Shown piece by piece: positions 7,964 to 43,213 of a stretch of 64,000 nucleotides of DNA (its first letter is position 1; each line of letters begins with the position of its first letter). The notes beneath the pieces are model-generated. The model worked only from the letters and a program-made list of their open reading frames with translations, was not told the origin of the DNA and did not search any database. The stretch is from a virus: the IMG/VR virus record IMGVR_UViG_3300030419_008098, positions 1 through 64,000 of that record; one strand, given 5' to 3'. Made by a program: the position numbers and the translations under genes.

Positions 7964-8137
7964 ATTTCGCTCTTTCCTTAAGTTAAAGTTCAGCCTTGCC
8001 TAGTTTCGCTATTAAAGTGTGGCGTCATCGTACATATTTCGCTCTGTTAAAGCAACAATTGGATCATGTTTCGCAACCCAAGAGCTTAGCTCAGCTGGTG
8101 TTTCGCCTTGGAAGTAATACTCTCCACCTCGTTTCAC
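7964..8137 (-). CRISPR. Non-canonical mini-repeat guide array upstream of nuclease
   Basis: RTTTCRC at 7964, 8003, 8036, 8068, 8100, 8131 (spacing 39,33,32,32,31) with unique intervening sequences; motif equals the end of the 36-nt repeat. Confidence 0.75.
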
Positions 8138-8224
8138 TTTAGAAAAGATGCTCTTTGATGCAATCTCGGAGCTTTGGATTCCCCCTGCGAACTAGGGAAG
8201 AATTTTAAATTATTTAAAGAACTG
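8131..8224 (-). ncRNA. Scaffold RNA copy D, first element after the promoter
   Basis: Hairpin 8178-8203, stem 8150-8172, boxA-like 8213-8224. Confidence 0.75.
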
Positions 8225-8230
8225 TAATAC

Positions 8231-8259
8231 ATTATCTCATAAACCGTGTTAAAAGTCAA
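8231..8259 (-). promoter_or_regulatory. Sigma70-type promoter driving scaffold D / mini-array / nuclease
   Basis: TTGACT-17 bp-GATAAT with TG extended -10. Confidence 0.75.
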
Positions 8260-8410: not shown

Positions 8411-8602
8411 TTATAAAGTTTTTTCATAAGTAAGAGCATCCTTTATTTTGTTCACAGCCGTTTGTGAATCAGTAAGAATGTGTTCTCCATTAATTAAGAC
8501 GATCTTCCAAGTCCCATAATTTCTACGCTTTCTAATATAAACCACATGATCGCTATTTATATAATAAAACTGTTCGGTATTATCTACTACTTCTATAATC
8601 AT
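8411..8602 (-). CDS. Hypothetical protein (weak FlbD-like pattern)
   Basis: 63 aa, YINSDHVVYI...IVLINGE. Confidence 0.5.
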   Translation of the reverse strand: MIIEVVDNTEQFYYINSDHVVYIRKRRNYGTWKIVLINGEHILTDSQTAVNKIKDALTYEKTL

Positions 8603-9122
8603 AGTTATTTAGAGTATCCAACTCGTTTAAAAGTTTTTTTGCGCGTTGTATTAAGCGAAATTTTTCTGTATTTATATTATTTGCCGTGGTCTGTAGTTGC
8701 TCCGCTATTTCTTTGACCGTTAAGCCATCACAGATAAGAGAAAATATTTTTTGTTGTTTTTTAGTGAGCCTACCTAAAATTTTAAGACGGAGCCAACGCC
8801 TTTCCTCCGTAACCACTGGAGCAAAAGGAATGTAAGACAAAAACGGCTCACTCGCCTCGTTCTCCGCGCTGTTATAAAAATTAATGGATACATGAGTGGG
8901 GGTTTTTTTATGTTTTTTAAAATAATTTAATATTTGATACTTGGCTATTCCTATTATCCATGCTTCAAAACATCTCCCCTCCTCAAAAACCTCTTCTTTA
9001 TTTAACGCAACTTCATTCACACTTTGAACTATATCCAAAGCGTCTGCCTCATTGAAAACTTTAGACTTAACAAATGCTTTTAATTGAGGCTGATTTTGTT
9101 TAAGCTGAGTTCCATAAGACAT
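8580..9122 (-). CDS. ECF-type RNA polymerase sigma factor-like protein
   Basis: DALDIVQ, FEAWIIGIAKYQILNYFKK (region 2); LTKKQQKIF...GLTVKEIAEQL (region 4). Confidence 0.8.
   Translation of the reverse strand: MSYGTQLKQNQPQLKAFVKSKVFNEADALDIVQSVNEVALNKEEVFEEGRCFEAWIIGIAKYQILNYFKKHKKTPTHVSINFYNSAENEASEPFLSYIPFAPVVTEERRWLRLKILGRLTKKQQKIFSLICDGLTVKEIAEQLQTTANNINTEKFRLIQRAKKLLNELDTLNNYDYRSSR

Positions 9123-42844: not shown

Positions 42845-43213
<369 letters not shown>

Follow-up and report, generated by a model that had tools for sequence, protein, structure and literature searches.

TranC systems are reportedly intermediates between transposons and CRISPR systems. The complementarity between scoutRNAs and CRISPR RNAs (crRNAs) extends over a few nucleotides. 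These scoutRNAs are the helper RNAs of types V-C and V-D, and recognise the crRNA by a short complementarity (PMC11127173). In the structure of ISDra2 TnpB, nucleotides -5 to -3 beside the guide of the omegaRNA form a pseudoknot with a 5'-proximal segment, and conservation of the guide-adjacent pseudoknot among Cas12 guide RNAs has been reported (PMC10097598). The type V-U* variants are small TnpB-derived effectors that have arrays and no Cas1, Cas2 or Cas4; arrays of omegaRNAs are thought to come from duplicated omegaRNA segments, and the fusion of half a repeat to a trans-activating crRNA (tracrRNA), which re-creates an omegaRNA, has been described (PMC10691335). For dCas12f, loci are known in which full-length guide RNAs occur together with CRISPR arrays (PMC13472631). 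Cas12r of Thermus phages is a TnpB-like effector with short degenerate-repeat arrays that lacks adaptation genes. Interference by Cas12r with plasmids and with rival phages has been demonstrated, and the spacers match elements that are integrated at tRNA genes (bioRxiv 10.64898/2026.04.20.719267). Finally, naturally truncated repeat-spacer units that encode guides have been described for Cas12k (Hsieh and Peters, bioRxiv 10.1101/2021.02.06.429022). Here we analyse a candidate array of guide units with a repeat of 7-10 nucleotides (nt), located upstream of a TnpB-like nuclease gene at positions 7964-8137 of a viral DNA stretch of 64,000 nt. This stretch, hereafter called the window, is the first 64 kb of the 96.7-kb IMG/VR virus record IMGVR_UViG_3300030419_008098 (linear, 69% complete).

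Results

Motif, spacing and statistics of the short-handle array

On the plus strand, the motif RTTTCRC starts at positions 7964, 8003, 8036, 8068, 8100 and 8131, in full agreement with the list in an earlier note on this DNA, with steps of 39, 33, 32, 32 and 31 nt. The minus strand accordingly reads GYGAAAY six times in 174 bases, and each segment closes with GCGAAAY or, for the copy that belongs to the adjacent scaffold RNA (scaffold A), with GTGAAAC. The window contains 32 plus-strand copies of RTTTCRC, 18 of them inside 5697-8131, and from the background outside the locus 0.04 copies are expected per 174 nt. In 300 genomes simulated with a first-order Markov model, no stretch of 174 nt on either strand contained more than three copies, against the six observed, and shuffles of the array region gave at most three (mean 0.09). 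Clustering and period of the motif are far beyond chance.

The conserved minus-strand block, (a)GA-GCGAAA-Y, matches letter for letter the final 7-10 nt of the 36-nt CRISPR repeat of the same locus and is referred to here as the handle. The same 3' end closes three of the four scaffolds. The initial claim that every scaffold ends in this motif does not hold for scaffold C, which ends in GCTAAAC and whose site at 6007 (GTTTAGC on the plus strand) lies outside the motif; the further sites named with it (5763/5798/5829, 5949/5975 and 6401/6432) are correct. In a logo of the 19 handle copies in the locus, G..AAA is invariant, positions 2 and 7 are Y, and aGA precedes the motif more weakly. Every one of these copies points the same way and coincides with a repeat or scaffold 3' end. 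Within 7964-8137, conservation ends sharply past 7-10 nt. The inserts of this array (A1-A5, 24-32 nt) show no mutual similarity, and their similarity to the rest of the 36-nt repeat is no better than that of shuffled controls, in agreement with the proposal that the repeats are reduced to the 3' handle common to the 36-nt repeat and the scaffolds. Unlike A1-A5, the downstream units C2 and D2 still hold 12 nt of the repeat. We also considered that the 31-33-nt units might be degenerate, spacer-less copies of the 36-nt repeat; this was ruled out, with A1-A5 matching the repeat body at shuffle level.

Measured against a canonical CRISPR, the array has regular spacing (steps 31, 32, 32, 33 and 39) and unique spacers of similar length, whereas its conserved block of 7-10 nt falls short of direct repeats of ~23-55 nt. 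Since Tandem Repeats Finder detects only the 66-nt-period array at 6134-6302, the short-handle array is invisible to ordinary repeat detection, as had been expected; a generic repeat finder splits it into two-copy families. The units measure 31-33 nt compared to 66 nt in the canonical array, and the density of putative guides is therefore about doubled, as first estimated.

Covariation of handle and scaffold loop

Every scaffold has a hairpin near its 5' end with a loop complementary to the last bases of the cognate repeat. Loop and handle fall into four classes (L numbers denote related loci, described below): GUUCGC:GCGAAAC in the window, L071, L073, L074, L079, L083 and the upstream arrays of L075 and L004; GUUUAG:CUAAAAC in L078, L076 and downstream in L075; GUUGAG:CUCAAAC in L004 and L072; and GUUUGC:GCAAAAC in L077. 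Two loci have two scaffold/handle classes for one effector. L004 (3271-3930 and 5410-5675) combines GUUCGC:GCGAAAC with GUUGAG:CUCAAAC, L075 (3189-3940 and 5350-5664) combines GUUCGC:GCGAAAC with GUUUAG:CUAAAAC, and the arrays follow the cognate scaffold.

We counted the named pairs in an alignment (A3) of 19 scaffold sequences from 12 related loci. The loop:handle helix comprises six pairs, three of which show changes on both sides, and 95% of its cells are paired. For the whole 12-pair structure, consisting of this helix and the hairpin stems, none of 500 shuffles reached the observed covariation score or percentage paired, in a structure that was derived from these same 19 sequences, which are related to each other; if the partner is slid by 1-3 columns, pairing falls to 34-67% in all controls. 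Handle variation in the window is confined to Y at positions 2 and 7, where G-U keeps the pairing, e.g., in the recurrent variant GTGAAAC. Four compensated loop/handle classes are hard to explain except by pairing, and the covariation in the clade identifies the handle as the pairing partner of the scaffold loop.

The 3' part of the scaffold is complementary to the middle of the repeat, and both change in step (AGGAGGUU with AACCUCCU in L073, AUCAUAGGUU with AACCUAUGAU in L074). These are therefore tracrRNA-type systems. As in an omegaRNA, each of the four scaffolds of the window ends in a handle that is followed by unique sequence. The loop:handle helix corresponds to the pseudoknot of ISDra2 TnpB, and the 7-10 nt retained in the short units are therefore precisely the strand of this pseudoknot. 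No Rfam family matches the locus, and the exact scaffold-core pattern has no match in IMG/VR.

Some segments directly after a handle start with TAG (window 6408-6431, L075 3767, L084 ~2130, L073 5507, L071 2155). Three of the TAG-starting segments begin with TAGAGTTC, in loci with effectors that are only 35-50% identical. Behind this shared start could lie a common target, a loop pairing that extends further (loop context CUAGUUCGC) or a signal for processing.

The effector protein

The effector matches the Pfam families PF07282 (Cas12f1-like_TNB) and PF01385 (OrfB_IS605) and passes the cut-off of the NCBIfam model guided_TnpB (NF040570; 191 bits, cut-off 100). It stays below the cut-offs of the Cas12f2 and C2c8 subtype models (NF049972, 50.8 bits vs 450; NF038192, 78 bits vs 350) and of the NCBIfam models for IS200 and IS607 TnpB. 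The RuvC residues D269, E352 and D445 (D-E-D) and the zinc-ribbon cysteines C416/C419/C435/C438 are invariant in 17 clade members. About 20 full-length relatives form a distinct clade, the closest homolog (P0001) being 89% identical, and ordinary TnpBs align to the C-terminal half only. An AlphaFold (AF2) model of the effector reached a predicted local distance difference test (pLDDT) score of 84.6. Its best Foldseek match was ISDra2 TnpB (8h1j; E 2e-15, TMt 0.69), followed by ISFba1 TnpB, Cas12p, AsCas12f, Fanzor2 and LaTranC (PDB 9jfo/9jfq); Cas12k structures ranked only 43-44.

The effector gene is present in one copy in the record. Neighbouring genes are conserved in related phage contigs, and we therefore regard the gene as a domesticated resident and not as an insertion sequence. 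The record contains no Y1 TnpA, in a search that did not extend to a serine-recombinase TnpA or to element ends. No match to Cas1 or Cas2 (PF01867, PF09827) was found in the 96.7-kb record, which at 69% completeness leaves their absence from the whole phage unproven. The locus differs from TIGR-Tas arrays, which lie beside a gene for a Tas protein with a Nop domain: the effector adjacent to the array has a RuvC-containing TnpB fold, and the flanking small open reading frames have no Pfam match.

Organization of the locus

The features of the locus are collected in Table 1. The promoter upstream of scaffold A is orthologous to the promoter directly before the L071 effector gene. A scan for further minus-strand promoter-like or terminator-like sites between it and the start codon found none, and scaffold A, array and gene are therefore probably one transcript; this promoter probably drives scaffold A and the short-handle array, and the effector gene too. 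The terminal segment in front of the start codon is either a possible sixth guide or just a 5' leader.

Table 1. Features of the short-handle locus, in order of the minus strand (window coordinates)
Feature	Position	Strand	Description	Basis
Sigma-70-type promoter	8231..8259	minus	TTGACT, 17 nt, TG-GATAAT	10/12 matches, extended -10
Scaffold A, omega/tracr-like RNA	8131..8222	minus	hairpin loop AGUUCGC; own handle GTGAAAC at 8131-8137	four-copy alignment
Short-handle array	7964..8130	minus	five insert + handle units, handles GCGAAAY	
Array inserts	8107-8130, 8075-8099, 8043-8067, 8010-8035, 7971-8002	minus	24-32 nt	
Array handles	8100-8106, 8068-8074, 8036-8042, 8003-8009, 7964-7970	minus	GCGAAAY, one per insert	
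Terminal segment after last handle	7907..7963	minus	57 nt to effector start codon	no promoter or terminator detected
Effector gene	6530..7906	minus	458-amino-acid TnpB-fold RNA-guided nuclease	Pfam, NCBIfam, fold match
Scaffold B	6432-6528	minus	ends GTGAAAT	scaffold alignment
One short-handle unit after scaffold B	insert 6408-6431, handle 6401-6407	minus		parsed by handle
Canonical array	6135..6400	minus	four 36-nt repeats, 30-32-nt spacers	repeat parse, Tandem Repeats Finder
Scaffold C	6007-6107	minus	variant handle GCTAAAC	scaffold alignment
Two short units after scaffold C	handles 5975-5981, 5949-5955	minus	second retains 12 nt of repeat	
Scaffold D	5829-5926	minus		scaffold alignment
Short units D1 and D2 with handles, after scaffold D	5805-5828 (D1), 5770-5797 (D2)	minus		parsed by handle
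38-nt segment, then terminal truncated repeat	within 5697..5926; repeat 5697-5724	minus	repeat of 28 nt	
Hairpin and T-run closing the locus	5672..5696	minus	terminator-like by eye; conserved in L071	unflagged by simple terminator scan

Scaffolds C and D have a common 5' extension starting with GCAGGGACGCCCTTAA (6108-6134 and 5928-5948, minus strand), which scaffolds A and B do not have. The extension points to tandem duplication of a module made up of a scaffold and its units. In L071, only B-like and C-like scaffold copies are present.

A contig of the DNA run X3, from a related strain with an effector gene 90-97% alike, carries about ten substitutions and three one-base gaps exactly within the canonical spacer at 6305-6328. 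The difference is flanked by conserved repeats and was seen at a low depth of 2.7; it suggests spacer replacement in natural populations. Contigs of the DNA runs X2-X4 cover the flanks but not 7954-8131, and none bridges this gap; joints in X3, with short sides and low likeness, were disregarded.

Related loci

A search with the clade alignment yielded about 20 related loci, each coming from IMG/VR or from a marine or aquatic metagenome. In the usual layout (L073, L074, L079, L075, L077), a promoter and a scaffold of ~100-150 nt precede an array with 36-nt repeats and ~30-nt spacers, and this arrangement flanks the gene on either side; L076 and L078 have this layout downstream of the gene. Such 36/30 arrays flank the gene in the window, L071, L073, L074, L075, L076, L077, L078, L079, L084 and L088. 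Contigs with an equal scaffold have different spacers, e.g., L073 and L079.

Short-handle runs are not a one-off feature of the window, since they are present in L004/L005/L072, L084/L006 and L071. In the first group (effector 60% identical), a GUUCGC-type scaffold upstream of the gene is followed by a run in which GYGRAAY occurs six times (the scaffold's own copy plus five), often in a 12-nt block, with five inserts of 18-44 nt. Upstream of the gene in L084 and L006 (effector 35% identical), a scaffold with its handle is followed after 19 nt by another handle. L071, the nearest relative (85% amino acid identity of the effector), has one short-handle unit. Repeat remnants of 7, 9, 12, 27-30 and 36 nt occur in the window, L071, L074, L075 and L083, and the 3' end is always retained. 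This series fits the loss of a dispensable 5' part under selection for the handle rather than random decay, as far as sequence comparison can tell, and is compatible with the origin by trimming of full units that the earlier note had proposed.

L004 and L005 have identical short-handle runs, and their full arrays differ by one unit. These near-identical contigs come from different samples; relative to L004, L005 has at ~3370-3420 an extra repeat with an unusually short spacer of 15 nt. In IMG/VR, a scan for three handles at 21-28-nt gaps gave at least 119 matches, and among the matches listed none encodes an effector relative. The matches that we inspected were coding repeats or unrelated, and were rejected as further arrays.

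Downstream of the gene, L071 aligns at ~90% to scaffold D, to the truncated repeat at the end and to the terminator, and the content between them is replaced. D1 with its handle forms an indel of about one unit that begins at the handle of the scaffold. The D2 insert is identical to that of L071 save for two extra 5' letters in L071 and a T-run that is two letters longer in the window. Units are therefore gained or lost whole, and at least one short-unit insert was inherited unchanged.

Resemblance of inserts to tRNA

We compared inserts with 41 tRNAs from the fetched loci. Insert A2 (8075-8099) has a 13/14 match to an antisense tRNA D-arm, a score reached by 1 of 100 shuffles. D1 (5805-5828) matches a T-arm at 14/16 positions (6/100 shuffles) and C2 (5956-5974) a 3' acceptor end at 10/10 (4/100 shuffles); the tRNA likeness of D2 does not stand out. 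The resemblance of A2, C2 and D1 is suggestive only. As for D1, a T-arm-like hairpin after a scaffold is also present in L089 (1789-1805).

Source and genomic setting

The DNA runs that contain the locus are labelled as marine or seawater metagenomes. We found no close cultured relative of the virus, and blastn with the locus gave no match; the DnaE-like protein of the record has less than 35% identity to every phage in the cultured collection. Genes in the locus part of the window lie on the minus strand. A gene of the sigma-70 family (regions 2 and 4) is located at 8580-9122 (minus strand), 0.4 kb upstream of the locus promoter, and L004/L005 and L075, and in part L086, have homologs at the corresponding place upstream of the effector. 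A sigma-70 gene beside an effector resembles the dCas12f-sigmaE pairs of RNA-guided transcription; the present effector has an intact RuvC site, though, and plain phage synteny may account for the linkage. ARAGORN identified a tmRNA-like gene of 367 nt at 42847-43213 (minus strand), with the tag peptide AATSVLLTQIG, and no tRNA genes in the 64-kb window.

Discussion

We propose that region 7964-8137 is a minimal-handle guide array of a phage TnpB-derived (type V-like) nuclease, in which the repeat has shrunk to a 3' handle of 7-10 nt; the chances of this being correct are in our view about even. One RNA, started at the matched promoter at 8259-8231, would comprise scaffold A, the units of handle and insert and, probably, the nuclease mRNA. 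The handle would pair with the scaffold hairpin loop GUUCGC, as the covariation demonstrates for the pair as such, and thereby form a guide-adjacent pseudoknot. Short units may form it in cis, or in trans with one of the four scaffold RNAs: either the loop of scaffold A would pair alternately with any handle of its own transcript, or the scaffold RNA would serve in trans. The 22-30 nt after each handle would then guide DNA cutting by the intact RuvC site. Full 36-nt repeats would add a second scaffold contact, the repeat:anti-repeat duplex that co-varies in L073 and L074, whereas the short units would rely on the pseudoknot alone. The short units are probably derived from full repeat-spacer units by loss of all but the functional 3' end and, to judge by the alignments, are gained or lost singly. 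If they do guide, the 7-nt strand that closes the pseudoknot would be the only repeat sequence needed by a TnpB-type effector, that is, a natural minimal crRNA, and the array would represent a very compact multiplex format that spends ~32 nt on each guide and could serve miniature genome editors. A stage of CRISPR evolution hidden from repeat finders would likewise come to light, and phage TnpB/Cas12f-like genes scored as 'array-less' may be armed.

A number of observations weigh against a guide array. No protospacers of the inserts were found in the phage's own genome, in cultured phages (all E at least 3), or in plasmids and 150 fetched loci. Exact 20-22-mers of the inserts A1, A2 and A4 and of the canonical spacer B3 had no match in IMG/VR, and neither the A2 nor the conserved D2 pattern matched in one genome per GTDB species. 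Since the canonical spacers match nothing either, this failure does not separate the short from the canonical class. No RNA run containing the locus was found. In L071, the -35 and -10 boxes are orthologous to those of the window and the start codon follows ~12 nt past the -10 box, whereas the window has a block of ~315 nt (scaffold A, array and leader) between -10 box and start codon. The block is therefore strain-specific and dispensable. The earlier note had looked for turnover of inserts with conservation of the handles. Rapid turnover is not apparent, with D2 (5770-5797) about as conserved as its flanks in L071, which fits fixed guides but also inherited inert DNA; the array at 7964-8137 has no ortholog to compare, so that inserts as conserved as the handles, which the note had named as a refutation, are neither shown nor excluded for it. 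Moreover, the covariation supports the role of the handle in full repeats and scaffolds and says nothing on the use of short units, and the 5-6 pairs of a pseudoknot may not suffice for guide loading where the repeat:anti-repeat duplex is missing.

Several of these points would equally be expected if the short units were an inert relic, left over from a canonical upstream array as in L073, L074 and L077 and eroded by deletions, such that only the guide beside scaffold A or none is used and the handles survive by chance or recent origin. The relatives do have canonical 36/30 arrays at the equal upstream position, truncated repeats accumulate at the distal array ends of L004, L071, L074 and L075 as in decay, and both the lack of the entire block in L071 and the failure to find targets or RNA support agree with such an origin. 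Random decay, however, would not keep five more handles at all seven positions while erasing the other traces of the repeat, nor is the regular step of 31-33 nt expected from it. The remnants always retain the 3' end that pairs with the scaffold loop, and the equal design is found independently in L004/L005 and L084/L006. We therefore consider a relic possible but doubtful.

The short-handle arrays could also represent a distinct, Cas1-independent route to a guide library. New segments would enter at the handle nearest the scaffold, and only this handle of ~9 nt would be duplicated, similar to a target-site duplication, and one scaffold would serve many guides via alternative pseudoknots, in cis or in trans. 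We regard this route as rather unlikely; if it were real, phage TnpB-derived systems would contain a natural format for multiplexed guides, and its functional repeat would be the shortest known.

A role in regulation at the RNA level appears quite unlikely. Handles in the leader might dock or process scaffold RNA and effector, couple effector translation or mRNA stability to the level of the ribonucleoprotein, or titrate scaffolds, the inserts being mere spacers. The array does lie between the only detectable promoter and the start codon, and its handles are able to pair with the scaffold loop. But equal short units follow scaffolds B, C and D downstream of the gene, where they are unable to act on the mRNA leader, the short-handle run of L004 precedes a separate promoter for the gene, and insert lengths of 22-30 nt agree with those of guides. 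That RTTTCRC is a DNA element, i.e., operators or iterons for a phage protein such as the neighbouring sigma-like factor or a replication protein, is hardly credible despite the short, regularly spaced direct repeats near a promoter and the sigma-70-family gene 0.4 kb upstream: 19 of 19 copies lie in one orientation at the 3' ends of repeats or scaffolds, a spacing of 31-39 bp is no helical repeat, and in relatives the motif changes along with a distant RNA hairpin loop, which is unexpected for a protein-binding DNA site and disfavours the operator or iteron that had been named as a possible refutation.

How does a minimal-handle guide array compare with the described systems? Closest in design are the type V-K (Cas12k) transposons. 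They likewise combine a type V-family effector and a tracr-like RNA with guides that keep only the repeat part pairing with the helper RNA, beside a standard array; their stable 'dedicated' truncated guide next to a changeable array is similar to the inherited short units next to a changing full array here. V-K units target tRNA genes, and some inserts of the window are weakly tRNA-like. However, the truncated form of V-K consists of separate att-targeting units with a 17-bp spacer, for homing by a nuclease-dead Cas12k with TnsBC/TniQ. The locus described here has up to six consecutive units, a repeat remnant of 7-10 nt and a small TnpB-fold effector with an intact RuvC site, resides in a phage, and no target was found.

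IS200/IS605 TnpB-omegaRNA (ISDra2; PDB 8h1j, 8exa; PMC10097598) provides the best fold match, and shares the guide directly after the scaffold and the guide-adjacent pseudoknot. There, one omegaRNA carries one guide, whereas our locus has four scaffolds, a CRISPR array and short-handle arrays, no Y1 TnpA that we could find, and a single-copy syntenic gene. The V-U* and omegaRNA arrays differ in their repeats, which have ordinary length or more (>60 bp in omegaRNA arrays) instead of 7-10 nt. In types V-C and V-D, the helper scoutRNA also meets the crRNA over a short complementarity, but these systems have full-length repeats, large Cas12c/Cas12d effectors and an associated Cas1. Truncated Cas12k units and scoutRNAs are two precedents for so little contact between repeat and helper RNA. 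Cas12r is likewise a phage-borne TnpB-like effector with short arrays and without adaptation genes; it differs in requiring no tracr or scout RNA, in its 29-bp repeats and in belonging to another TnpB branch. Our literature search found no description of unit runs in which the repeat measures only 7-10 nt. Taken together, adaptation-less TnpB-derived arrays and truncated Cas12k units are known, and what appears to be new in this phage locus are the runs of units with a repeat of 7-10 nt.

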